Source: Escherichia coli
GTDB taxonomy: Bacteria; Pseudomonadota; Gammaproteobacteria; Enterobacterales; Enterobacteriaceae
NCBI RefSeq assembly: GCF_030013595.1
Contig: NZ_CP122768.1
Strand: one strand, 5' to 3'
Length of the DNA stretch: 64,000 nt
Position numbers and translations under genes: made by a program. Below the pieces are notes generated by a model. It worked only from the letters and a program-made list of their open reading frames with translations. It was not told where the DNA came from and did no database searches. Shown one piece after another: positions 1 through 51,364 of the stretch (positions within the stretch are counted from its first letter, which is position 1; every line of letters begins with the position of its first letter).

Positions 1-338
1 CCACCCTCTCCGGCGGACAGCAGCAGCGTGTGGCGATTGCCCGTGCGCTGATGCAGCAGGCGAAGGTGATTCTGGCCGATGAACCCATCGCCTCGCTGGA
101 CCCGGAATCGGCGCGCATCGTGATGGACACCCTGCGCGACATTAACCAGAACGACGGCATTACCGTGGTCGTCACGCTGCATCAGGTGGATTACGCCCTG
201 CGCTACTGCGAACGCATCGTCGCCCTGCGCCAGGGGCACGTCTTCTACGACGGCAGCAGCCAACAGTTTGATAACGAACGTTTTGACCATCTCTACCGCA
301 GCATCAACCGCGTCGAAGAAAACGCGAAAGCTGCCTGA
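1..338 (+). CDS. phnC: Phosphonate ABC transporter ATP-binding protein PhnC, C-terminal part (5' end outside window)
   Basis: ORF running in from the window edge; ABC signature LSGGQQQRV and Walker B ILADEP; immediately upstream of phnD. Confidence 0.9.
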
Positions 339-362: not shown

Positions 363-1379
363 ATGAACGCTAAGATAATTGCCTCGCTGGCCTTCACCAG
401 CATGTTCAGCCTCAGCACCCTGTTAAGCCCGGCGCACGCCGAAGAGCAGGAAAAGGCGCTGAATTTCGGCATTATTTCAACGGAATCACAGCAAAACCTG
501 AAACCGCAATGGACGCCGTTCTTACAGGATATGGAGAAGAAGCTGGGCGTGAAGGTCAACGCCTTCTTTGCCCCGGACTACGCGGGCATTATCCAGGGAA
601 TGCGCTTCAACAAAGTGGATATCGCCTGGTACGGCAATCTGTCAGCGATGGAAGCGGTGGATCGCGCCAATGGCCAGGTCTTCGCCCAGACGGTCGCGGC
701 GGATGGATCGCCGGGTTACTGGAGCGTGTTGATCGTCAACAAAGATAGTCCGATCAACAACCTGAACGATCTGCTGGCGAAGCGGAAAGATCTCACCTTC
801 GGCAATGGCGATCCTAACTCTACCTCCGGCTTCCTCGTCCCTGGTTACTACGTCTTCGCCAAAAACAATATCTCCGCCAGCGACTTCAAGCGCACCGTCA
901 ACGCCGGGCATGAAACCAACGCGCTGGCCGTCGCCAACAAGCAGGTGGATGTGGCGACCAACAACACCGAAAACCTCGACAAGCTGAAAACCTCCGCGCC
1001 AGAGAAGCTGAAAGAACTGAAGGTGATCTGGAAGTCGCCGCTGATCCCAGGCGATCCGATCGTCTGGCGCAAGAATCTTTCCGAAACCACCAAAGACAAG
1101 ATCTACGACTTCTTTATGAATTACGGCAAAACGCCGGAAGAGAAAGCGGTGCTGGAACGCCTAGGCTGGGCCCCGTTCCGCGCCTCCAGCGACCTGCAAC
1201 TGGTGCCGATTCGCCAGCTCGCACTGTTTAAAGAGATGCAGGGCGTGAAAAGCAATAAAGGGCTGAATGAGCAGGACAAGCTGGCAAAAACCACCGAGAT
1301 TCAGGCGCAGCTGGATGACCTGGACCGCCTGAACAACGCGTTAAGCGCGATGAGTTCGGTGAGTAAAGCGGTGCAGTAA
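363..1379 (+). CDS. phnD: Phosphonate ABC transporter periplasmic binding protein
   Basis: 338 aa ORF with N-terminal signal peptide; position and length fit PhnD. Confidence 0.92.
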   Translation: MNAKIIASLAFTSMFSLSTLLSPAHAEEQEKALNFGIISTESQQNLKPQWTPFLQDMEKKLGVKVNAFFAPDYAGIIQGMRFNKVDIAWYGNLSAMEAVDRANGQVFAQTVAADGSPGYWSVLIVNKDSPINNLNDLLAKRKDLTFGNGDPNSTSGFLVPGYYVFAKNNISASDFKRTVNAGHETNALAVANKQVDVATNNTENLDKLKTSAPEKLKELKVIWKSPLIPGDPIVWRKNLSETTKDKIYDFFMNYGKTPEEKAVLERLGWAPFRASSDLQLVPIRQLALFKEMQGVKSNKGLNEQDKLAKTTEIQAQLDDLDRLNNALSAMSSVSKAVQ

Positions 1380-1439
1380 TGTGCTCGATCGGTCCCCTCT
1401 CCCACAGGGAGAGGGAGAAAACATTAAACGGAGCAATAT

Positions 1440-2219
1440 ATGCAAACCATCACCATCGCCCCACCCAAGCGCAGCTGGTTCTCGCTTCTGAGCTGGGCCA
1501 TTGTTCTCGCCGTGCTGGTCGTCTCGTGGCAGGGCGCGGAAATGGCCCCGCTCACGCTGATTAAAGACGGCGGCAACATGGCAACCTTCGCCGCCGACTT
1601 CTTCCCGCCCGATTTCAGCCAGTGGCAGGATTACCTCACCGAAATGGCCGTCACGCTGCAAATCGCCGTCTGGGGCACCGCGCTGGCGGTGGTTCTCTCC
1701 ATCCCCTTCGGTCTGATGAGCGCCGAAAACCTAGTGCCGTGGTGGGTTTACCAGCCCGTACGCCGCCTGATGGACGCCTGCCGCGCCATTAACGAAATGG
1801 TCTTCGCCATGCTGTTCGTGGTCGCCGTCGGCCTTGGCCCGTTCGCTGGCGTGCTGGCGCTGTTTATCCACACCACCGGCGTGCTCTCCAAACTGCTTTC
1901 CGAAGCGGTAGAAGCAATTGAACCCGGCCCGGTGGAAGGTATTCGCGCCACCGGTGCCAACAAGCTCGAAGAGATCCTCTACGGCGTGCTGCCGCAGGTG
2001 ATGCCGCTGCTGATCTCCTACTCCCTCTATCGCTTCGAATCCAACGTCCGTTCGGCCACCGTTGTTGGCATGGTCGGCGCTGGCGGGATCGGCGTCACCC
2101 TGTGGGAAGCGATTCGCGGTTTCCAGTTCCAGCAAACCTGCGCCCTGATGGTGCTGATTATCGTCACGGTCAGCCTGCTGGATTTCCTCTCTCAACGGTT
2201 GCGTAAGCACTTTATCTGA
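1440..2219 (+). CDS. phnE: Phosphonate ABC transporter permease, intact reading frame
   Basis: Uninterrupted 259 aa ORF with multiple hydrophobic segments; synteny between phnD and phnF. Confidence 0.88.
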
Positions 2220-2239: not shown

Positions 2240-2965
2240 ATGCACTTGTCTACACATCCGACCAGCTACCCAACACGCTATCAGGAGATAGCCGCAAAAC
2301 TTGAGCAGGAGCTTCGTCAACACTACCGCTGCGGCGACTATCTTCCCGCCGAGCAGCAACTGGCGGCGCGCTTTGAGGTGAACCGCCACACCCTGCGCCG
2401 CGCCATCGACCAACTGGTGGAAAAAGGCTGGGTACAGCGCCGTCAGGGCGTCGGCGTGCTGGTGCTGATGCGCCCGTTCGATTACCCGCTCAACGCCCAG
2501 GCGCGTTTTAGCCAGAACCTGCTGGATCAGGGCAGCCATCCCACCAGCGAAAAACTGCTGTCTGTGCTGCGCCCGGCCTCCGGTCACGTCGCTGACGCGC
2601 TGGGGATAACCGAGGGCGAGAACGTTATCCACCTGCGCACCCTGCGCCGGGTCAACGGCGTCGCGCTCTGTTTAATCGACCACTACTTTGCGGACCTCAC
2701 CCTCTGGCCGACGCTGCAACGCTTCGACAGCGGCTCGCTGCACGATTTTCTGCGCGAGCAAACGGGGATTGCGCTGCGCCGCAGCCAGACGCGGATCAGC
2801 GCCCGCCGCGCCCAGGCCAAAGAGTGCCAGCATCTTGAAATCCCGAATATGTCGCCGCTGCTGTGCGTGCGCACCCTTAACCACCGTGACGGTGAAAGCA
2901 GCCCGGCGGAGTACTCCGTCAGCCTGACGCGCGCCGACATGATTGAATTCACTATGGAGCACTGA
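2240..2965 (+). CDS. phnF: GntR-family transcriptional regulator of the phn operon
   Basis: 241 aa from MHLSTHP; N-terminal GntR-type HTH region; ORF track offers an alternative start at 2231. Confidence 0.9.
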   Translation: MHLSTHPTSYPTRYQEIAAKLEQELRQHYRCGDYLPAEQQLAARFEVNRHTLRRAIDQLVEKGWVQRRQGVGVLVLMRPFDYPLNAQARFSQNLLDQGSHPTSEKLLSVLRPASGHVADALGITEGENVIHLRTLRRVNGVALCLIDHYFADLTLWPTLQRFDSGSLHDFLREQTGIALRRSQTRISARRAQAKECQHLEIPNMSPLLCVRTLNHRDGESSPAEYSVSLTRADMIEFTMEH

Positions 2966-3418
2966 ATGCACGCAGATACCGCGACCCGCCAGCACTGGAT
3001 GTCCATACTGGCACACAGCCAACCGGCTGAACTGGCAGCCCGCCTGAAGGCGCTGAACATCACCGCCGACTATGAGGTGATCCGCGCCGCTGAAACCGGC
3101 CTGGTGCAGATTCAGGCGCGGATGGGTGGCACCGGCGAACGCTTTTTTGCTGGCGACGCCACGCTCACCCGCGCCGCCGTACGCCTGACTGACGGCACGC
3201 TCGGCTACAGCTGGGTGCTGGGGCGCGACAAACAGCACGCCGAACGCTGCGCGCTGATCGACGCGCTGATGCAGCAAACCCGCCATTTTCAAAACTTATC
3301 AGAAACTCTTATTGCCCCGCTGAACGCTGACCGTATGGCACGCATTGCCGCACGCCAGGCCGAAGTAAACGCCAGCCGGGTCGACTTCTTTACGATGGTT
3401 CGCGGAGATAACGCATGA
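2966..3418 (+). CDS. phnG: C-P lyase core complex subunit PhnG
   Basis: 150 aa ORF; start immediately follows the phnF stop; synteny. Confidence 0.9.
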
Positions 3419-3999
3419 CCCTGGAAACCGCTTTTATGCTTCCCGTGCAGGATGCCCAGCACAGTTTTCGTCGCCTGTTAAAGGCCATGAGCGAGCCGGG
3501 CGTGATTGTCGCCCTGCATCAGCTCAAGCGCGGCTGGCAGCCGCTGAATATCGCCACCACCAGCGTGCTGCTGACGCTGGCCGATAACGACACGCCGGTG
3601 TGGCTTTCTGCGCCATTAAGTAACGATATCGTCAGCCAGAGCCTGCGTTTTCATACCAACGCGCCGCTGGTCAATCAGCCGGAACAGGCGACCTTCGCGG
3701 TAACGGATGAGGCGATTTCCAGCGAACAGCTCAACGCTCTTTCCAGCGGCACCGCTGTTGCGCCGGAAGCGGGCGCGACGCTGATTTTACAGGTCGTCAG
3801 CCTGAGCGGCGGGCGCATGCTGCGCCTTACTGGCGCGGGTATTGCCGAAGAACGAATGATCGCTCCGCAGCTGCCGGAGTGCATTCTGCACGAACTCACC
3901 GAGCGCCCGCACCCGTTCCCGCTCGGCATCGACCTGATCCTGACCTGCGGCGAGCGCCTGCTGGCTATCCCGCGAACCACTCATGTGGAGGTGTGCTGA
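3415..3999 (+). CDS. phnH: C-P lyase core complex subunit PhnH
   Basis: 194 aa ORF overlapping phnG by 4 nt; synteny. Confidence 0.9.
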
Positions 4000-5063
4000 T
4001 GTACGTTGCCGTGAAAGGGGGCGAGAAGGCGATCGACGCCGCCCACGCCCTGCAAGAGAGCCAACGCCGGGGCGATACCGATTTGCCCGAACTGAGCGTC
4101 GCCCAGATTGAACAACAGCTTAACCTCGCGGTAGATCGCGTGATGACTGAAGGCGGCATTGCCGACCGCGAACTGGCGGCGCTGGCGCTGAAACAGGCCA
4201 GCGGCGATAACGTCGAAGCAATTTTCCTGCTGCGCGCCTACCGTACCACGCTGGCTAAGCTTGCGGTAAGCGAGCCGCTCGACACCACGGAGATGCGTCT
4301 CGAACGGCGTATTTCAGCGGTTTATAAAGATATTCCCGGCGGCCAGCTGCTTGGCCCAACCTACGACTACACCCATCGCCTGCTCGATTTCACCCTGCTG
4401 GCAAACGGCGAAGCGCCGACGCTGACCACCGCCGACAGCGCACAACAGCCGTCGCCGCACGTTTTCAGCCTGCTGGCGCGTCAGGGGCTGGCGAAGTTTG
4501 AGGAGGATAGCGGCGCACAGCCGGATGACATCACCCGCACGCCGCCGGTTTACCCCTGCTCACGCTCCTCCCGCCTGCAACAATTAATGCGCGGGGACGA
4601 AGGCTATTTGCTGGCGCTGGCCTACTCCACCCAGCGTGGTTACGGACGCAATCACCCGTTCGCGGGCGAGATCCGCAGCGGATATATCGACGTGTCGATT
4701 GTGCCGGAAGAGCTGGGATTTGCGGTGAACGTCGGCGAACTGCTGATGACCGAATGTGAAATGGTCAACGGTTTTATCGACCCGCCGGATGAGCCGCCGC
4801 ACTTCACGCGCGGCTACGGGCTGGTGTTCGGCATGAGCGAGCGCAAAGCGATGGCGATGGCGCTGGTTGACCGTGCGTTGCAGGCTCCGGAGTACGGCGA
4901 GCACGCGACAGGCCCGGCGCAGGATGAAGAGTTCGTGCTGGCGCATGCCGACAACGTCGAAGCCGCAGGCTTTGTCTCGCACCTTAAACTCCCGCACTAC
5001 GTCGATTTCCAGGCCGAACTGGAGCTACTCAAACGTCTGCAACAGGAGCTGAACCATGGCTAA
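3999..5063 (+). CDS. phnI: C-P lyase core complex subunit PhnI
   Basis: 354 aa from [10 protein letters not shown]; ATG at 3999-4001 overlaps the phnH stop; ORF track extends upstream to 3879 in the same frame. Confidence 0.9.
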   Translation: MYVAVKGGEKAIDAAHALQESQRRGDTDLPELSVAQIEQQLNLAVDRVMTEGGIADRELAALALKQASGDNVEAIFLLRAYRTTLAKLAVSEPLDTTEMRLERRISAVYKDIPGGQLLGPTYDYTHRLLDFTLLANGEAPTLTTADSAQQPSPHVFSLLARQGLAKFEEDSGAQPDDITRTPPVYPCSRSSRLQQLMRGDEGYLLALAYSTQRGYGRNHPFAGEIRSGYIDVSIVPEELGFAVNVGELLMTECEMVNGFIDPPDEPPHFTRGYGLVFGMSERKAMAMALVDRALQAPEYGEHATGPAQDEEFVLAHADNVEAAGFVSHLKLPHYVDFQAELELLKRLQQELNHG

Positions 5064-5901
5064 TCTGAGCGGCTACAACTTTGCCTACCTCGACGAGCAG
5101 ACCAAACGCATGATCCGCCGCGCCATCTTAAAAGCGGTGGCGATCCCCGGTTATCAGGTGCCGTTTGGCGGGCGCGAGATGCCGATGCCGTACGGCTGGG
5201 GAACTGGTGGTATCCAGCTTACCGCCAGCGTGATTGGCGAAAGCGACGTGTTGAAGGTGATTGACCAGGGTGCGGATGACACCACCAACGCCGTGTCGAT
5301 TCGCAACTTCTTTAAGCGCGTGACCGGGGTAAACACCACTGAACGTACGGACGATGCGACGCTTATCCAGACGCGTCACCGCATCCCCGAAACGCCGCTG
5401 ACCGAAGATCAGATCATTATCTTCCAGGTGCCAATCCCGGAACCGCTGCGCTTTATCGAGCCACGCGAAACGGAGACCCGCACTATGCACGCGCTGGAGG
5501 AGTACGGCGTGATGCAGGTGAAACTGTATGAAGATATCGCCCGCTTCGGTCATATCGCCACCACCTATGCTTATCCGGTGAAGGTGAACGGGCGCTACGT
5601 GATGGACCCGTCGCCGATCCCGAAATTCGATAACCCGAAAATGGACATGATGCCCGCCCTGCAGCTGTTCGGCGCAGGGCGCGAGAAGCGCATCTATGCG
5701 GTGCCGCCGTTTACCCGCGTGGAAAGCCTCGATTTCGACGATCACCCGTTCACCGTTCAGCAGTGGAATGAGCCATGCGCCATCTGCGGATCGACCCACA
5801 GCTATCTTGATGAAGTGGTGCTGGATGACGCCGGAAACCGCATGTTTGTCTGCTCCGATACCGATTATTGCCGCCAACAGAGCGAGGCGAAAAGCCAATG
5901 A
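5056..5901 (+). CDS. phnJ: C-P lyase catalytic subunit PhnJ (radical SAM-like, Cys-rich C-terminus)
   Basis: 281 aa ORF; C-terminal cysteine cluster CAICGS...CSDTDYC; overlaps phnI end. Confidence 0.92.
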   Translation: MANLSGYNFAYLDEQTKRMIRRAILKAVAIPGYQVPFGGREMPMPYGWGTGGIQLTASVIGESDVLKVIDQGADDTTNAVSIRNFFKRVTGVNTTERTDDATLIQTRHRIPETPLTEDQIIIFQVPIPEPLRFIEPRETETRTMHALEEYGVMQVKLYEDIARFGHIATTYAYPVKVNGRYVMDPSPIPKFDNPKMDMMPALQLFGAGREKRIYAVPPFTRVESLDFDDHPFTVQQWNEPCAICGSTHSYLDEVVLDDAGNRMFVCSDTDYCRQQSEAKSQ

Positions 5902-6656
5902 ATCAACCGTTACTTTCGGTCAACAACCTGACCCACCTTTACGCGCCGGGCAAAGGCTTTAGCGATGTCTCTTTTGATTTATGGCCGGGGGAAGTGCTAG
6001 GCATCGTCGGGGAATCCGGCTCCGGGAAGACCACGCTGCTGAAATCAATCTCCGCGCGCCTGACGCCGCAGCAGGGGGAAATTCACTATGAAAACCGTTC
6101 CCTCTATGGCATGAGCGAGGCCGACCGCCGTCGCCTGCTGCGCACCGAATGGGGCGTGGTGCATCAGCATCCGCTCGACGGCCTGCGCCGCCAGGTGTCG
6201 GCAGGCGGCAATATCGGCGAGCGGCTGATGGCGACCGGGGCGCGTCATTACGGCGACATCCGCGCCACCGCGCAGAAGTGGCTGGAAGAGGTGGAGATTC
6301 CCGCCAACCGGATCGACGACCTGCCGACCACCTTTTCCGGCGGCATGCAGCAACGTTTGCAGATTGCCCGCAACCTGGTGACGCATCCGAAGCTGGTGTT
6401 TATGGACGAGCCAACCGGCGGGCTGGATGTATCGGTACAGGCGCGCCTGCTCGATCTGCTGCGCGGTCTGGTGGTGGAGCTGAATCTGGCGGTGGTGATT
6501 GTCACCCACGATCTGGGCGTCGCCCGCCTGCTGGCGGACCGTTTGCTGGTGATGAAACAGGGGCAAGTGGTGGAGAGTGGGTTAACCGACCGCGTGCTCG
6601 ACGACCCTCACCATCCATATACCCAGCTGCTGGTGTCATCGGTTTTGCAGAATTGA
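5898..6656 (+). CDS. phnK: C-P lyase system ATP-binding protein PhnK
   Basis: 252 aa from [11 protein letters not shown]; Walker [10 protein letters not shown]; ATGA start/stop overlap with phnJ. Confidence 0.9.
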
Positions 6657-6766: not shown

Positions 6767-7447
6767 ATGATTAACGTACAAAACGTCAGTAAAACCTTCA
6801 TCCTGCACCAGCAAAACGGCGTGCGCCTGCACGTCTTACAACGTGCCTCGCTCACCGTCAACGCAGGCGAATGCGTGGTGCTCCACGGCCACTCCGGCAG
6901 CGGCAAATCAACTCTGCTGCGCTCGCTGTACGCCAACTATCTGCCCGATGAAGGGCAAATCCAGATCAAACATGGTGACGAGTGGGTAGACCTGGTCACT
7001 GCACCAGCGCGCAAAGTGGTGGAGATCCGCAAAACCACCATCGGCTGGGTGAGCCAGTTTCTGCGCGTCATCCCGCGTATTTCGGCACTGGAAGTGGTGA
7101 TGCAGCCTCTGCTCGATACCGGCGTACCGCGTGAAGCCTGCGCCGCTAAAGCCGCCCGATTACTGACGCGCCTGAACGTGCCTGAACGCCTGTGGCACCT
7201 GGCACCATCGACCTTCTCCGGTGGCGAACAGCAGCGTGTCAACATCGCCCGTGGCTTTATCGTCGACTACCCCATTCTGCTGCTCGACGAACCTACCGCC
7301 TCGCTGGACGCTAAAAACAGCGCCGCCGTAGTGGAACTGATCCGCGAAGCCAAAGCCCGCGGCGCGGCCATCGTCGGTATCTTCCATGACGAAACCGTGC
7401 GCGAGCAAGTCGCCGACCGCCTGCACCCAATGGGAGTCTCTTCATGA
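6767..7447 (+). CDS. phnL: C-P lyase system ATP-binding protein PhnL
   Basis: 226 aa from MINVQNVSK; Walker [10 protein letters not shown] and ABC signature FSGGEQQRV; the 432 aa track ORF 6149..7447 is an arginine-rich frame artifact upstream. Confidence 0.9.
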
Positions 7448-8580
7448 TTATCAATAACGTCAAACTGGTGCTGGAAAACGAGGTGGTACACGGTTCTCTG
7501 GAGATGCAGGACGGCGAAATCCGCGCCTTTGCCGAAAGCCAGAGTCACCTGTCAGAAGCAATGGACGGCGAAGGCGGCTGGCTGCTACCGGGGCTGATTG
7601 AGCTGCATACCGATAATCTGGATAAATTCTTCACCCCGCGTCCAAAAGTGGACTGGCCCGCCCACTCGGCAATGAGTAGCCACGACGCGCTGATGGTGGC
7701 GAGCGGCATCACCACCGTGCTGGACGCGGTGGCGATTGGCGACGTGCGCGACGGCGGCGATCGGCTGGAGAATCTGGAGAAGATGATCAACGCCATCGAA
7801 GAGACGCAGAAACGCGGCGTCAACCGCGCCGAGCACCGTCTGCATCTGCGCTGCGAACTGCCGCATCACACCACGCTGCCGCTGTTTGAAAAACTGGTGC
7901 AGCGCGAACCGGTGACGCTGGTGTCGCTGATGGATCACTCGCCGGGCCAGCGCCAGTTCGCCAATCGCGAGAAGTATCGCGAATATTATCAGGGCAAATA
8001 CTCGCTCACCGATGTGCAGATGCAGCAGTACGAAGAGGAACAGCTGGCGCTTGCCGCACGCTGGTCACAGCCTAATCGCGAAACTATCGCCGCAATGTGC
8101 CGCGCGCGACACATTGCGCTCGCCAGCCACGATGACGCCACGCACGCGCACGTTGCCGAATCTCACCAGCTTGGCAGCGTGATCGCCGAATTTCCCACCA
8201 CGTTCGAAGCGGCAGAAGCCTCGCGCAAGCATGGCATGAACGTGCTGATGGGCGCGCCGAATATCGTGCGCGGCGGTTCGCACTCCGGCAACGTGGCGGC
8301 CAGTGAACTGGCGCAGCTTGGCCTGCTGGATATCCTCTCTTCCGACTACTACCCCGCCAGCCTGCTCGATGCGGCATTTCGCGTCGCCGATGACGAGAGC
8401 AACCGCTTTACGCTGCCGCAGGCGGTGAAGCTGGTGACTAAAAATCCGGCGCAGGCGCTTAATCTTCAGGATCGCGGAGTGATTGGCGAGGGCAAACGCG
8501 CCGACCTGGTGCTGGCGCATCGCAAGGGCAACCACATTCATATCGACCACGTCTGGCGTCAGGGTAAAAGGGTGTTCTGA
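7444..8580 (+). CDS. phnM: Amidohydrolase-family PhnM (ribosyl-triphosphate phosphonate diphosphohydrolase)
   Basis: 378 aa ORF overlapping phnL by 4 nt; synteny. Confidence 0.9.
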
Positions 8581-9137
8581 TGACGGGAAAACTGATTTGG
8601 TTAATGGGTCCGTCCGGCTCCGGGAAAGACAGCCTGCTGGCGGAACTCCGCCAGCGGGAACAAACCCAGCTACTGGTAGCGCATCGCTACATCACGCGTG
8701 ATGCCAGCGCCGGAAGTGAAAATCATATCGCCTTAAGCGAGCGGGAGTTTTTTACCCGCGCGGGGCAAAATCTGTTGGCCTTGAGCTGGCATGCTAATGG
8801 TTTGTATTACGGTGTCGGCATTGAGATCGACCTCTGGCTGCACGCCGGATTCGACGTCGTGGTTAACGGCTCACGCGCCCACCTGCCGCAGGCGCGGGCG
8901 CGCTATCAATCGGCGCTGCTGCCCATTTGCTTACAGGTTTCGCCGGAGATCCTGCGCCAGCGCCTGGAAAACCGTGGCCGTGAAAACGCCAGTGAAATTA
9001 ACGCCCGGCTGGCGCGCGCCGCCCGCTATACTCCTCAGGATTGCCATACGCTCAATAATGACGGCAGCCTGCGCCAGTCGGTCGACACGCTGCTGACGCT
9101 GATTCATCAGAAGGAGAAACACCATGCCTGCTTGTGA
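8580..9137 (+). CDS. phnN: Ribose 1,5-bisphosphate phosphokinase PhnN
   Basis: 185 aa ORF with P-loop GPSGSGKDS; synteny. Confidence 0.9.
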
Positions 9138-9558
9138 GCTTCGCCCGGCCACGCAGTACGATACCGACGCAGTTTACGCGCTGATTTGTGAGCTAAAACA
9201 GGCGGAGTTTGACCACCATGCGTTTCGCGTGGGGTTTAACGCCAATCTGCGCGATCCGAACATGCGCTACCATCTGGCGCTGCTGGATGGCGAAGTTGTC
9301 GGCATGATCGGCCTGCATTTGCAGTTTCATCTGCATCATGTCAACTGGATCGGCGAAATTCAGGAACTGGTGGTGATGCCGCAGGCGCGCGGTCTGAACG
9401 TCGGCAGCAAATTACTGGCATGGGCAGAAGAAGAAGCCCGCCAGGCCGGGGCCGAAATGACCGAGCTTTCCACCAACGTGAAGCGCCACGACGCGCACCG
9501 TTTTTACCTGCGTGAAGGCTACGAGCAGAGCCACTTCCGCTTCACCAAGGCGCTGTAA
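9124..9558 (+). CDS. phnO: Aminoalkylphosphonate N-acetyltransferase (GNAT family) PhnO
   Basis: 144 aa ORF; synteny and length. Confidence 0.88.
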
Positions 9559-9559
9559 C

Positions 9560-10318
9560 ATGAGCCTGACCCTCACACTTACTGGCACTGGCGGCGCACA
9601 GGGCGTTCCCGCATGGGGCTGTGAGTGCGTGGCCTGCGTCAGAGCGCGGCGCTCACCGCAGTATCGCCGCCAGCCATGCAGCGGCGTCGTGAAGTTTAAC
9701 GACGCGATCACCCTGATCGACGCCGGGCTGCACGATCTCGCCGATCGCTGGTCGCCCGGATCGTTCCAGCAGTTTTTGCTGACGCACTACCATATGGATC
9801 ACGTGCAGGGGCTGTTTCCGCTGCGCTGGGGCGTGGGCGATTCGATCCCGATCTACGGCCCGCCGGATGAACAGGGCTGCGACGATCTGTTTAAACATCC
9901 GGGCCAGCTTGATTTCAGCCACACGATGGAACCGTTTGTGGTGTTTGATTTACAGGGGTTACAGGTCACGCCCCTGCCGCTCAACCACTCAAAACTGACC
10001 TTCGGTTATCTGCTGGAAACGGCACATAGCCGGGTGGCGTGGCTGTCTGACACCGCAGGCCTACCGGAAAAAACGCTGAAATTTTTACGCAATAATCAAC
10101 CGCAGGTGATGGTGATTGATTGCAGCCACCCACCGCGCGAGGATGCACCGCGTAATCACTGTGATTTAAATACCGTGCTTGCGCTGAATGAAGTTATCCG
10201 CTCGCCGCGCGTGGTTCTGACCCATATCAGCCATCAGTTTGATGCGTGGCTGATGGAGAACTTACTGCCGTCAGGGTTTGAGGCGGGGTTTGATGGGATG
10301 GAGATTGGGGTGGCGTGA
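9560..10318 (+). CDS. phnP: Metallo-beta-lactamase-fold phosphodiesterase PhnP
   Basis: 252 aa from [12 protein letters not shown]; HYHMDH metal-binding motif; ATG 2 nt after the phnO stop. Confidence 0.9.
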
Positions 10319-10345: not shown

Positions 10346-10675
10346 TCAACGCCCATACTCATCTTCCATTCTCCGCTCTTCATCCTCCAGTTGCCGACGC
10401 TCCTGATCAAGCTGGCGCTGGCGATCGTCCAGCTGCCTGCGGCGATCTTCAAACTGACGGCGGCGGTCGTCATATTGTCTGCGCCGATCGTCGCTCACTT
10501 CACGCTGCCAGCCGTCGTCGTGCGAATCTTCATAGTCTCGCCCACGGTCAGGGTTATAAGCATCGTTAATCGCCTGCTGAATATTGCCAATGGTGTCGTC
10601 GATAATATCGGCCTGGGCCGGAACGGTAGACAGCGTGAGCAGGGTGAATAAAAGAAATAGCGGAAAGCGTTTCAT
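10346..10675 (-). CDS. yjdP: Small secreted low-complexity protein YjdP
   Basis: 109 aa ORF; signal peptide followed by Arg/Asp/Gln/Glu-rich repeats (DDRRRQ...). Confidence 0.8.
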   Translation of the reverse strand: MKRFPLFLLFTLLTLSTVPAQADIIDDTIGNIQQAINDAYNPDRGRDYEDSHDDGWQREVSDDRRRQYDDRRRQFEDRRRQLDDRQRQLDQERRQLEDEERRMEDEYGR

Positions 10676-10743: not shown

Positions 10744-11061
10744 TCAATTTCTCCGCTGCTCTATTGCCGTAATCGCCTCCACGCGTTGTTGATGACGACC
10801 GCCTTCGTACTGCGCGCCCAGCCACGCATCCACAATCATTTTTGCCAGTTCGAGGCCAACCACTCGTGAACCAAAAGCCAGTGCAACTTCACTGGCGTAA
10901 TGCGGATAATCAGTGCGCTCTGACGGCCTGGTTTCTTTATCAATCCCCTCACTCATTGACCATGAATAAAAGGCTGGCACAGCAACGCGGAATCCTGCGG
11001 TGCCAGCGACATGACCGCCCATTGCTCCGGTACGTTTTTTAATAAAAAACACCGGTTGCAT
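10744..11061 (-). pseudogene. rpiB: Ribose-5-phosphate isomerase B remnant: RpiB-like N- and C-terminal segments with the central catalytic region missing
   Basis: 105 aa ORF with SERTDYPHYAS motif and RpiB/LacAB-like C-terminus but about 45 residues shorter than RpiB; residues upstream of the motif are in a foreign frame. Confidence 0.6.
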
Positions 11062-11313
11062 TGATTAATTGTGCTCAGTATTTGCCGAAGTACAATATAT
11101 ATAATAAATATATAAAACACCTCATATTATTTACAGAAATAATGAATTCGCGTAATTTTCCCTCTTCAGCACAAATGCCTAATAAAATGGCGCGTTCAGC
11201 TCACACTTCTACTTATTAAAGTCGCAATTTCCCAATTATGATAACGCCAGCTTCAAATGACGTATTTTGCATGGGTTACATATTTACGACATAAATGATA
11301 AATGGAGATTTAT

Positions 11314-13299
11314 ATGAATAACTCTCGGTTATTCCGTTTGAGCAGGATTGTTATTGCGTTAACTGCCGCCAGCAGCATGATGGTAAATACCGCTAATGCG
11401 AAAGAGGAAGCGAAAGCCGCCACTCAATATACCCAACAGGTTAATCAGAATTACGCCAAATCATTACCGTTTAGCGATCGTCAGGATTTTGACGATGCCC
11501 AGCGTGGATTTATCGCCCCGCTGCTGGATGAAGGTATTCTGCGTGATGCTAACGGCAAAGTTTACTACCGCGCAGACGATTACAAATTTGATATTAATGC
11601 CGCTGCGCCGGAAACCGTAAACCCCAGCCTGTGGCGTCAGTCGCAAATCAACGGTATTTCTGGCCTGTTCAAAGTCACCGATAAAATGTATCAGGTGCGC
11701 GGCCAGGATATCTCTAACATTACGTTCGTTGAGGGCGAGAAAGGCATTATTGTTATCGACCCGCTGGTGACGCCGCCTGCCGCAAAAGCCGCACTTGATC
11801 TTTACTTCCAGCATCGTCCGCAAAAACCGATTGTTGCTGTTATTTACACCCACAGCCACGCCGACCATTATGGCGGTGTGAAAGGCATTATCTCTGAAGC
11901 GGATGTTAAATCCGGCAAAGTGCAGGTGATCGCTCCGGCAGGCTTTATGGACGAAGCCATCAGCGAAAACGTGCTGGCGGGTAACATCATGAGCCGCCGT
12001 GCGCTCTACTCTTACGGTCTGTTACTGCCGCACAACGCGCAAGGCAACGTGGGCAACGGCCTGGGCGTGACGCTGGCAACCGGCGACCCGAGCATTATTG
12101 CACCGACTAAAACTATCGTCAGAACTGGCGAGAAGATGATTATCGACGGCCTGGAATTTGACTTCCTGATGACTCCGGGTAGCGAAGCGCCAGCCGAAAT
12201 GCACTTCTATATTCCGGCCCTGAAAGCCCTGTGTACCGCCGAGAACGCCACGCATACCCTGCACAACTTCTACACTCTGCGCGGCGCGAAAACCCGCGAT
12301 ACCAGCAAGTGGACCGAGTACCTGAACGAAACGCTGGATATGTGGGGTAACGACGCGGAAGTACTGTTTATGCCGCACACCTGGCCGGTCTGGGGCAATA
12401 AGCATATCAATGATTATATTGGTAAATATCGCGATACCATCAAGTACATTCACGACCAGACCCTGCACCTGGCGAACCAGGGCTACACCATGAATGAAAT
12501 CGGCGACATGATTAAGCTGCCGCCTGCGCTTGCCAATAACTGGGCCAGCCGCGGCTATTACGGTTCTGTCAGCCACAACGCCCGCGCGGTGTATAACTTC
12601 TATCTTGGCTATTACGACGGTAACCCGGCTAACCTGCATCCGTATGGTCAGGTGGAGATGGGTAAACGTTACGTGCAGGCGCTGGGCGGTTCTGCCCGTG
12701 TCATCAACCTGGCGCAAGAAGCGAACAAGCAAGGTGATTACCGCTGGTCGGCAGAACTGCTGAAACAGGTGATTGCCGCCAACCCTGGTGACCAGGTCGC
12801 GAAGAATCTGCAAGCGAATAACTTTGAACAGCTGGGCTATCAGGCCGAGTCCGCCACCTGGCGCGGTTTCTACCTGACCGGCGCGAAAGAGCTGCGCGAA
12901 GGGGTACATAAGTTCAGCCACAGCTCCACCGGTTCCCCGGACACCCTTCGCGGGATGTCGGTCGAAATGCTATTCGACTTTATGGCCGTTCGCCTCGATA
13001 GCGCGAAAGCCGCAGGTAAGAATATCAGCCTGAACTTCAATATGAGCAACGGCGATAACCTCAACCTGACGCTGAACGATAGCGTGCTTAACTACCGTAA
13101 AACGCTGCAACCTGAAGCCAACGCCTCTTTCTACATCAGCCGTGAAGATCTTCACGCCGTGCTGACCGGACAAGCCAAAATGGCGGATCTGGTAAAAGCG
13201 AAGAAAGCCAAAATTATTGGCAATGGCGCGAAACTGGAAGAAATTATTGCCTGTCTGGATAATTTCGATTTGTGGGTGAATATCGTAACCCCAAATTAA
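11314..13299 (+). CDS. yjcS: Putative alkyl/aryl-sulfatase (metallo-beta-lactamase fold, SdsA1-like), secreted
   Basis: 661 aa from MNNSRLF; signal peptide; [10 protein letters not shown] metal-binding motif; ORF track alternative start at 11302. Confidence 0.85.
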
Positions 13300-18544: not shown

Positions 18545-20692
18545 ATGAAAAAAGTCGTCACGGTTTGCCCCTATTGCGCATCAGGTTGCAAAATCAACCT
18601 GGTCGTCGATAACGGCAAAATCGTCCGGGCGGAGGCAGCGCAGGGGAAAACCAACCAGGGTACCCTGTGTCTGAAGGGTTATTATGGCTGGGACTTCATT
18701 AACGATACCCAGATCCTGACCCCGCGCCTGAAAACCCCCATGATCCGTCGCCAGCGTGGCGGCAAACTCGAACCTGTTTCCTGGGATGAGGCACTGAATT
18801 ACGTTGCCGAGCGCCTGAGCGCCATCAAAGAGAAGTACGGTCCGGATGCCATCCAGACGACCGGCTCCTCGCGTGGTACGGGTAACGAAACCAACTATGT
18901 AATGCAAAAATTTGCGCGCGCCGTTATTGGTACCAATAACGTTGACTGCTGCGCTCGTGTCTGACACGGCCCATCGGTTGCAGGTCTGCACCAATCGGTC
19001 GGTAATGGCGCAATGAGCAATGCTATTAACGAAATTGATAATACCGATTTAGTGTTCGTTTTCGGGTACAACCCGGCGGATTCCCACCCAATCGTGGCGA
19101 ATCACGTAATTAACGCTAAACGTAACGGGGCGAAAATTATCGTCTGCGATCCGCGCAAAATTGAAACCGCGCGCATTGCGGACATGCACATTGCACTGAA
19201 AAACGGCTCAAACATCGCGCTGTTGAATGCGATGGGTCATGTCATTATTGAAGAAAACCTGTACGACAAAGCGTTCGTCGCTTCCCGTACAGAAGGCTTT
19301 GAAGAGTATCGTAAAATCGTTGAAGGCTACACGCCGGAGTCGGTTGAAGATATCACCGGCGTCAGCGCCAGTGAGATTCGTCAGGCGGCACGGATGTATG
19401 CCCAGGCGAAAAGCGCCGCCATCCTGTGGGGCATGGGTGTAACCCAGTTCTACCAGGGTGTGGAAACCGTGCGTTCTCTGACCAGCCTCGCGATGCTGAC
19501 TGGTAACCTCGGTAAGCCGCATGCGGGTGTAAACCCGGTTCGTGGTCAGAACAACGTGCAGGGTGCCTGCGATATGGGCGCGCTGCCGGATACGTATCCG
19601 GGCTATCAGTACGTGAAAGATCCGGCTAACCGCGAGAAATTCGCCAAAGCCTGGGGCGTGGAAAGCCTGCCAGCGCATACCGGCTATCGCATCAGCGAGC
19701 TGCCGCACCGCGCAGCGCATGGCGAAGTGCGTGCCGCGTACATTATGGGCGAAGATCCGCTGCAAACTGACGCGGAGCTGTCGGCAGTACGTAAAGCCTT
19801 CGAAGATCTGGAACTGGTCATCGTTCAGGACATCTTTATGACCAAAACCGCGTCGGCGGCGGATGTTATTTTACCGTCAACGTCGTGGGGCGAGCATGAA
19901 GGCGTGTTTACTGCGGCTGACCGTGGCTTCCAGCGTTTCTTCAAAGCGGTTGAACCGAAGTGGGATCTGAAAACGGACTGGCAAATCATCAGTGAAATCG
20001 CCACCCGTATGGGTTATCCGATGCACTACAACAACACCCAGGAGATCTGGGATGAGTTGCGTCATCTGTGCCCGGATTTCTACGGTGCGACTTACGAGAA
20101 AATGGGCGAACTGGGCTTCATTCAGTGGCCTTGCCGCGATACTTCAGATGCCGATCAGGGGACTTCTTATCTGTTTAAAGAGAAGTTTGATACCCCGAAC
20201 GGTCTGGCGCAGTTCTTCACCTGCGACTGGGTAGCGCCAATCGACAAACTCACCGACGAGTATCCGATGGTACTGTCAACGGTGCGTGAAGTTGGTCACT
20301 ACTCTTGCCGTTCGATGACCGGTAACTGTGCGGCACTGGCAGCGCTGGCTGATGAACCTGGCTACGCACAAATCAATACCGAAGACGCCAAACGTCTGGG
20401 TATTGAAGATGAGGCATTGGTTTGGGTGCACTCGCGTAAAGGCAAAATTATCACCCGTGCGCAGGTCAGCGATCGTCCGAACAAAGGGGCGATTTATATG
20501 ACCTACCAGTGGTGGATTGGTGCCTGTAACGAGCTGGTTACCGAAAACTTAAGCCCGATTACGAAAACGCCGGAATACAAATACTGCGCCGTGCGCGTCG
20601 AGCCGATCGCCGATCAGCGCGCCGCCGAGCAGTACGTGATTGACGAGTACAACAAGTTGAAAACTCGCCTGCGCGAAGCGGCACTGGCGTAA
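18545..20692 (+). CDS. fdhF: Formate dehydrogenase H, selenocysteine-containing molybdoenzyme; in-frame TGA at 18962-18964 read as Sec
   Basis: Track ORFs 18545..18964 and 19013..20692 are in the same frame, separated only by TGA after VDCCARV; 715 aa total; N-terminal Fe-S cysteine motif CPYCASGC. Confidence 0.93.
18962..19008 (+). promoter_or_regulatory. SECIS selenocysteine-insertion stem-loop immediately 3' of the fdhF UGA
   Basis: Position directly after the in-frame UGA; exact structure boundaries not folded here. Confidence 0.7.
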
Positions 20693-39289: not shown

Positions 39290-39450
39290 TGACATACAAT
39301 TAAAGCATCAACACCAACCGGAACCTCCACCACGTGCTCGAATGAGGTGTGTTGACGTCGGGGGAAACCCTCCTGTGTACCAGCGGGATAGAGAGAAAGA
39401 CAAAGACCGGAAAACAAACTAAAGCGCCCTTGTGGCGCTTTAGTTTTGTT
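39290..39450 (+). ncRNA. ryjA: Candidate small RNA (ryjA position) ending at a terminator hairpin that overlaps the soxR 3' end
   Basis: Strong hairpin aaactaaagcgcc / ggcgctttagttt at 39416..39446 followed by T-rich tract; remembered ryjA location between soxR and ghxP; 5' boundary is a guess. Confidence 0.35.
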
Positions 39451-50359: not shown

Positions 50360-51364
50360 TCAGTCAGGAAGTTGATGAAGAATTTGCCCCAGTCGCTCTT
50401 GCAGCGAACCCGAAACCGAAAGATAAGGAATGTTCCTGCGCGATAATTCCTGTTCGTACCACGCCTGCTGCCGCGCGCGAAACGCCTCTCCTTGCCGGGT
50501 GCCATCCTGCACAAAGGGAAATTCCGCGCCGCAAAGCACCACCAGAGAGTATTCCCGCTCCGCCAGCTGGTGAAGTTCTTGCGGGGCATGACCATATTGA
50601 TCAAGGGTATAGAACAAGGTCGTGAGTGGCGATGTGTCACATATAAGATAGCGATTAGCTTCTGCTTGTTGTTCCCGACGTACCTGTTCGCGGGCGATAT
50701 GCAACAAATCGTCTGCGGTTAAAACACCATTTTTCTCTTCCCAATAGTCGCGACCAAATTCAGCGACATACGCCGTATCGAGCACGTCCGCCAGCGCTTT
50801 TGAAAGTGTGCTCTTACCGGTTGATTCGCCACCAAGCAGACAGATACGGCGAACGAAACTGCGATAAACGTCGTGCGCCAGCATGTAGCGATAGCGGTGA
50901 ACGTCGGAACGAATCAGCGTTCCCGAAGGAGATTTATCGCCACGTGGACGTTGTAATCGAATGTGTTCAACAGGTTGGGCAAAACGCTTTGTCAGCACTT
51001 TAGCAAAACCGTCACCATAATCTTCTGCGGTAAATACAGCGTGTGGGCGGCAACGTAATACCTGCAGGCACAGCGTCGCCACATAATGACGATGGATGTC
51101 GGCATCGGCATCATTATGCGGTATGGCAGGTAAGTTATAACGCGCGATCAGTTCGGGAGTCAGTACCAGAACCGTCGCTCGCGGGAAGCGCACTTGCAGC
51201 CACGTCAGGCGCTTTTCAGGTTCACAGTCAGGCATTTCCGGCACGGAATAACTGATGATGAACAGTTCTTCACATTGTGCCAGCGCGGTATTGATCAACC
51301 GTTCATGACCACAATGCAAAGGCGCGAATTTGCCAACCACCAGTCCCGTTACGAAACGCTTCAT
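50360..51364 (-). CDS. NadR-like bifunctional enzyme lacking the HTH domain: nucleotidyltransferase (NMNAT-type) plus P-loop ribosylnicotinamide-kinase-like domain
   Basis: 334 aa from MKRFVTGLVVGKFAPLHCGHERLI (H-x-G-H nucleotidyltransferase motif) and downstream Walker A LLGGESTGKST; ATGA overlap with the upstream PnuC-like gene; track ORF starts 8 codons earlier at 51388. Confidence 0.7.
   Translation of the reverse strand: MKRFVTGLVVGKFAPLHCGHERLINTALAQCEELFIISYSVPEMPDCEPEKRLTWLQVRFPRATVLVLTPELIARYNLPAIPHNDADADIHRHYVATLCLQVLRCRPHAVFTAEDYGDGFAKVLTKRFAQPVEHIRLQRPRGDKSPSGTLIRSDVHRYRYMLAHDVYRSFVRRICLLGGESTGKSTLSKALADVLDTAYVAEFGRDYWEEKNGVLTADDLLHIAREQVRREQQAEANRYLICDTSPLTTLFYTLDQYGHAPQELHQLAEREYSLVVLCGAEFPFVQDGTRQGEAFRARQQAWYEQELSRRNIPYLSVSGSLQERLGQILHQLPD

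Follow-up and report, generated by a model that had tools for sequence, protein, structure and literature searches.

Results

The phnE reading frame and its protein

The gene phnE occupies positions 1440..2219 on the plus strand of the window, by which we mean the whole 64,000-nt stretch of Escherichia coli DNA that was analysed. It is listed among the open reading frames as one ORF of 780 nt with an ATG start that encodes 259 aa, a GGAG is found 7-10 nt 5' of the ATG, and the translation of 1440..2219 (+) contains no internal stop. The gene is flanked by phnD (363..1379) and phnF (2240..2965), and is thus encoded next to phnD and to the 3' part of phnC (3-338). The sequence-only reading of this DNA, which had described phnE as a single uninterrupted 259-aa ORF between phnD and phnF, was therefore exact in coordinates, length and neighbours.

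The ORF, its alignment with K-12 and two protein profiles identify the product as an ABC-importer permease. PhnE matched the NCBIfam equivalog TIGR01097 with 311.3 bits against a cut-off of 216.7, and since the match is a single stretch covering profile positions 8-251 of 252, it indicates that no frameshift is masked within the ORF. The ABC-importer permease domain PF00528 was found at residues 88-258 (91.8 bits). By motif search and hydropathy an EAA-type loop was located at residues 155-186 (1902..1997, plus strand), 3' of the repeat tract described below, and the tract itself falls within residues 125-143, where the hydrophobicity of PhnE is at its highest. A sequence search for solved structures found none of PhnE; the closest relative of known structure was MetI (E = 6e-6, over residues 125-254). 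In the nearest genome, that of the pig isolate HCP5S3_I2, the same 259-aa protein is annotated by PGAP as an intact phnE (WP_001193496.1).

The 8-bp tract and comparison with K-12

In a nucleotide alignment with K-12 MG1655 (NC_000913.3, b4583), the sole indel within phnE was 8 bp long. The window has two tandem 8-bp units, GCTGGCGT GCTGGCGC, at 1845-1860 on the plus strand (codons 136-141, AGVLAL), and 15 nt of this putative slippage tract are perfectly periodic, whereas the K-12 tract consists of three units, GCTGGCGT GCTGGCGT GCTGGCGC. In the three-unit K-12 gene the frame shifts after residue 140 and a stop follows after 189 residues, which deprives the product of its EAA coupling loop and of its C-terminal helices. 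The alignment bears out the earlier statement that K-12 phnE carries a frameshifting 8-bp duplication, and the check that had been proposed along with it, alignment with the K-12 gene, gave the expected result in that the extra repeat is absent from the window. The cryptic K-12 type of allele, three tandem units with a resulting frameshift, is thus not the one found here. The tract nevertheless has the make-up of a contingency locus, in that at least two tandem units follow each other without interruption within the gene and the length of a unit is not divisible by 3 nt. It was read from the K-12 alignment, as two units lie below the thresholds of the repeat search, which for 1380-2240 left the 8-bp tandem unreported and gave an unrelated inverted repeat of 14 nt as its sole entry.

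The cryptic state of K-12 has been attributed to the 8-bp insertion, loss of 8 bp (GCTGGCGT, ORF positions 407-414) restores phosphonate and Pi transport by PhnCDE in K-12, and reversion has been explained by slippage between the direct repeats (PMC6469041, PMC4759930, PMC3463581, bioRxiv 10.1101/2019.12.23.887760). As a functional comparator we took K-12 phnE with one unit removed in silico, representing the phnE+ revertant. Both proteins are 259 aa long and V21I is the only difference between them. At the nucleotide level the two genes differ at 27 positions, 26 of which are synonymous, and this indicates purifying selection.

The remainder of the phn operon

phnE is the third cistron of the 14-gene carbon-phosphorus lyase operon phnCDEFGHIJKLMNOP. 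Within the window the 13 cistrons from phnD to phnP are intact and gapless, all on the plus strand, and phnC is represented by residues 152-262 only (3..338; 100% identical to K-12 PhnC by tblastn), its start and promoter lying before the window. Each ORF from phnD to phnP has an ATG start and one terminal stop. The periplasmic phosphonate-binding protein PhnD (338 aa) is 100% identical to that of K-12 over its full length, and the GntR-type regulator PhnF (241 aa) is 99.6% identical, differing by R198H only. These are followed by phnG (2966-3418), phnH (3415-3999), phnI (3999-5063), phnJ (5056-5901), phnK (5898-6656) and phnL (6767-7447), which together encode the C-P lyase core and the ATP-binding subunits; the products of phnG to phnL are full length and gapless with 96.5-99.6% identity to K-12. 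The same is true, at 95.2-100% identity, of phnM (7444-8580), phnN (8580-9137), phnO (9124-9558) and phnP (9560-10318).

Compared with K-12, between 5 and 12 residues are substituted in several of the Phn proteins, with 11 in PhnM and 12 in PhnP, and none of the substitutions falls at a residue known to be catalytic. PhnJ G32, C241, C244, C266 and C272, which we take to be the radical and cluster residues, are unchanged, as are the His/Asp residues 76, 78, 80, 81, 143, 164, 200 and 222 of PhnP, presumably its metal ligands.

The distances between successive genes are +24 (C/D), +60 (D/E), +20 (E/F), 0 (F/G), -4 (G/H), -1 (H/I), -8 (I/J), -4 (J/K), +110 (K/L), -4 (L/M), -1 (M/N), -14 (N/O) and +1 nt (O/P), which is also the layout of the K-12 operon. 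The suggestion that tight start/stop overlaps run through the whole of phnC-P consequently applies from phnF to phnP, with the exception of the 110-nt gap between phnK and phnL, but not to phnC, phnD, phnE and phnF, which stand 20-60 nt apart.

No RNA family was found by Rfam in the phn region. Elsewhere in the window, two Rfam families passed the gathering threshold, the sraL sRNA at 39307-39447 (+, 153 bits) and the fdhF SECIS_2 element at 18957-19011 (+, 87 bits), both expected in this region of the E. coli chromosome. Beyond phnP, a degraded rpiB remnant at 10744-11061 (-) lies between yjdP (10346-10675) and yjcS (11302-13299). It consists of a 105-aa ORF keeping roughly residues 29-54 and 104-149 of K-12 RpiB, and is named an RpiB/LacA/LacB family isomerase by PGAP in the nearest genome. 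The als (allose) operon, which is located between rpiB and yjcS in K-12, is absent from the window. Further along, genes for a pnuC-like nicotinamide riboside transporter and an AAA-family ATPase appear, judging from the annotation of the nearest genome, to be situated between tyrB and alr (~50360-51920), two genes that we take to be adjacent in K-12.

The phnD-phnE spacer and the nearest genome

With positions 1300-2300 as query, matches covering at least 80% of the segment were obtained in 5,393 complete E. coli records, and two pig isolates were 100% identical to it. Over the whole window, identity to the pig isolate HCP5S3_I2 was 99.97%, with 20 mismatches and one 47-nt indel. The gene qorA is continuous in the window (~54535-55560, +), and in HCP5S3_I2 it lacks 47 nt (~54720-54758) and is annotated as frameshifted.

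The 60-nt spacer between phnD and phnE (1380-1439) is non-homologous to the K-12 spacer, which is ~105 nt long and REP-like. It contains a perfect palindrome with a 9-bp stem, CCCTCTCCC ACA GGGAGAGGG, at 1395..1415, and no T-run follows the palindrome on either strand. This variant of the spacer was found at query coverage of at least 80% in 1,328 complete genomes, some of which have an extra insertion of ~65 nt. A 43-nt element of the spacer has 100% matches in O26, O111 and further genomes at unannotated loci unrelated to this one, and so resembles a dispersed intergenic repeat of small size.

The PhoB-dependent promoter and phnC residues 1-151 lie before the start of the window, and for these HCP5S3_I2 was consulted. 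Its phnC is annotated as intact, and the region of the phnC promoter shares 97% identity with K-12, from which it differs by CTGTTAG to CCGTTAG, TTTTAAT to TTTTAGT and, just after these, TAACC to TAACA. The stretch holding the three SNPs is in or beside what we presume to be the Pho box. Because the same promoter haplotype is shared at an identity of at least 99% by 391 records, it would represent a standing natural variant rather than a lesion.

Two-unit and three-unit alleles among complete genomes

The three-unit allele was sought with a 64-nt probe, which matched with at least 80% coverage in 1,012 of 5,426 complete E. coli genomes. In the other matching genomes the probe aligned from the second unit on; almost all of the sampled rows had 73% coverage, as is predicted for two units. 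A 94-nt probe separated 4862 records into 1,012 with three units (95-99% identity) and 3,850 with two (80-95%). With the 788-nt K-12 phnE as query, 999 records reached at least 99% identity; these cannot be two-unit alleles, whose identity to the query is 98.98% at most. Below 99%, almost all of the sampled records spanned exactly 780 nt. Roughly 80% of the ~5,400 complete E. coli genomes therefore carry the two-unit, 780-nt phnE, a form to which PGAP gives the annotation of an intact gene, and a functional phnE has previously been described for the vast majority of strains (PMC6469041). The intact two-unit gene is the norm of the species, which was already known, and it is not a distinguishing feature of the present strain.

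The three-unit allele, found in ~1,000 of the 5,400 complete genomes, comes in about two thirds of cases from natural isolates, whose sources are humans, pigs, dogs, chickens and water. Judged by rank in an evenly spaced listing, ~280-360 of the three-unit records are identical to K-12 and are mostly laboratory strains, and ~640-720 are one or a few SNPs away from K-12, with humans, pigs and dogs among the sources of the SNP-bearing records. Among the carriers are isolates from human stool (Chile and Mozambique) and from a chicken (China), in which PGAP annotates the gene as "frameshifted" and phnE is 0-1 SNP from K-12. The chicken isolate EC17CM13 additionally lacks 2 nt of phnE, at about nt 239-240 and thus 5' of the tract.

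The three-unit allele is nearly confined to a single K-12-like phnE haplotype, which accounts for 999 of the 1,014 three-unit records, and none was found on the window type of local haplotype among the 4862 records of the 94-nt probe. Conversely, two units on the K-12 haplotype (at least 99.9% identity) were seen in only five records, namely an MG1655 derivative, ETEC1732, ETEC1734, Z217-2 and Z217-4, and these are likely to be revertants. A four-unit allele was present in SW07163, a wastewater isolate from the Galapagos. The number of units therefore varies (2, 3, 4) among complete genomes, which is a further property of a contingency locus; on the window's haplotype, among the matches of the 94-nt probe, no such variation was observed.

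Discussion

The evidence presented here makes it very likely that positions 1440-2219 hold the wild-type, in-frame ("ON", two-unit) form of phnE, and that phosphonates should be taken up by the strain and support its growth as the only source of P. Since the encoded protein is one conservative residue (V21I) away from the transport-restoring revertant allele of K-12, it would be expected to transport in vivo, and a working PhnCDE importer with a Phn+ phenotype is a reasonable prediction from the sequence. In contrast to K-12, the strain should then need no prior reversion to take up phosphonates and Pi via PhnCDE.

What is established for type I ABC importers and the Pho regulon suggests the following model for the function of the operon and for its loss. 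Upon phosphate starvation PhoB would activate the phnC promoter, and periplasmic PhnD would bind alkyl- and aminoalkyl-phosphonates, as well as Pi, and deliver phosphonate to the channel formed by PhnE, which is probably a dimer and would be coupled to the PhnC ATPase through the EAA loop at residues 155-186. The phosphonate brought in would be converted to phosphate by PhnG-P. The repeat units (codons 136-141) are predicted to fall within a membrane-spanning segment immediately 5' of the EAA loop. If slippage during replication adds one unit, as in K-12, the frame would shift, and transport would be abolished through loss of the C-terminal helices along with the coupling loop.

It is also conceivable that the tract switches reversibly and happened to be ON, with the culture being a mixture of two-unit and three-unit cells, the assembly reporting the majority state and the phenotype being heterogeneous. 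The two units of the window are indeed uninterrupted and offer slippage the same substrate as in K-12, where the event is described as frequent (PMC4759930; PMC6469041), and both the natural variation in unit number and the two-unit revertants on the K-12 haplotype are consistent with such a switch. However, the near-restriction of the three-unit allele to one haplotype across ~5,400 complete genomes, and its absence from the window type in our search, suggest that ON-to-OFF switching is rarely fixed or captured outside that lineage, and we consider a mixed population to be unlikely.

A second alternative is that phnE is intact and the strain is nevertheless Phn-negative or poorly inducible, owing to a defect outside the window or to a deleterious missense change in the C-P lyase. 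The position of the promoter and of phnC residues 1-151 outside the window, the three SNPs that the nearest genome has within or beside its presumed Pho box, and the number of substitutions in PhnM and PhnP leave some room for this. Against it, phnC is annotated as intact in a relative that is 99.97% identical over the window, the promoter haplotype recurs in 391 records, the presumed radical and cluster residues of PhnJ and metal ligands of PhnP are unchanged, and the almost complete lack of non-synonymous changes in phnE points to selection acting on the operon. A Phn-negative strain with an intact phnE therefore seems quite improbable. The last alternative, that compensating frameshifts have left a 259-aa ORF open by chance and its product is no real PhnE, had been named at the outset as the finding that would overturn an intact gene. 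It can be dismissed with near certainty, since the gene has no indel relative to K-12 other than the 8-bp unit, the profile is matched in a single stretch and V21I is the only change from the in-silico revertant.

The distribution of the alleles bears on how the two-unit, in-frame phnE of this strain should be viewed. Iqbal et al. 2004 are said to have regarded the OFF form as unique to K-12, and our literature search for frameshifted phnE in natural lineages found nothing relevant. We suggest, with somewhat less than even confidence, that the 8-bp tract is a species-wide, naturally polymorphic switch rather than a laboratory oddity of K-12, and that the OFF state has been stably kept, and possibly selected, in one lineage. 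If this is true, the OFF lineage may offer an example of selection against the uptake of toxic phosphonates, and the window would represent the ON state of the polymorphism, which lineages of its kind would have retained. The supposedly K-12-specific cryptic allele is in any case widespread in natural isolates of a single haplotype group, and this affects how phenotypes of phosphonate, glyphosate or fosfomycin uptake are extrapolated from K-12 to wild strains.

Amongst known systems, the closest counterpart of the window gene is the phnE+ of K-12 Phn+ revertants and of E. coli B, with which, compared by way of the in-silico K-12 revertant, it shares the position in the operon, the length of 780 nt and 259 aa, and the two units. 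The revertant haplotype of K-12 differs from the window by the 27 mostly synonymous nucleotide changes and in the phnD-phnE spacer. Together with the missing als operon, these differences also exclude K-12 as the origin of the window. The cryptic K-12 phnE (b4583, a pseudogene) lies at the orthologous locus in the same operon and is 96.6% identical in nucleotide sequence outside the indel, but has one extra GCTGGCGT unit that the window is without. In O157:H7 phnE a synonymous SNP interrupts the first unit (GCTGGTGT), and this SNP is absent from the window. At a greater distance, MetI of the methionine ABC importer (PDB 3dhw, 6cvl) belongs to the same BPD_transp_1 fold family and shares the EAA coupling loop, although it is a distant homologue of PhnE with a different substrate and a different binding protein.
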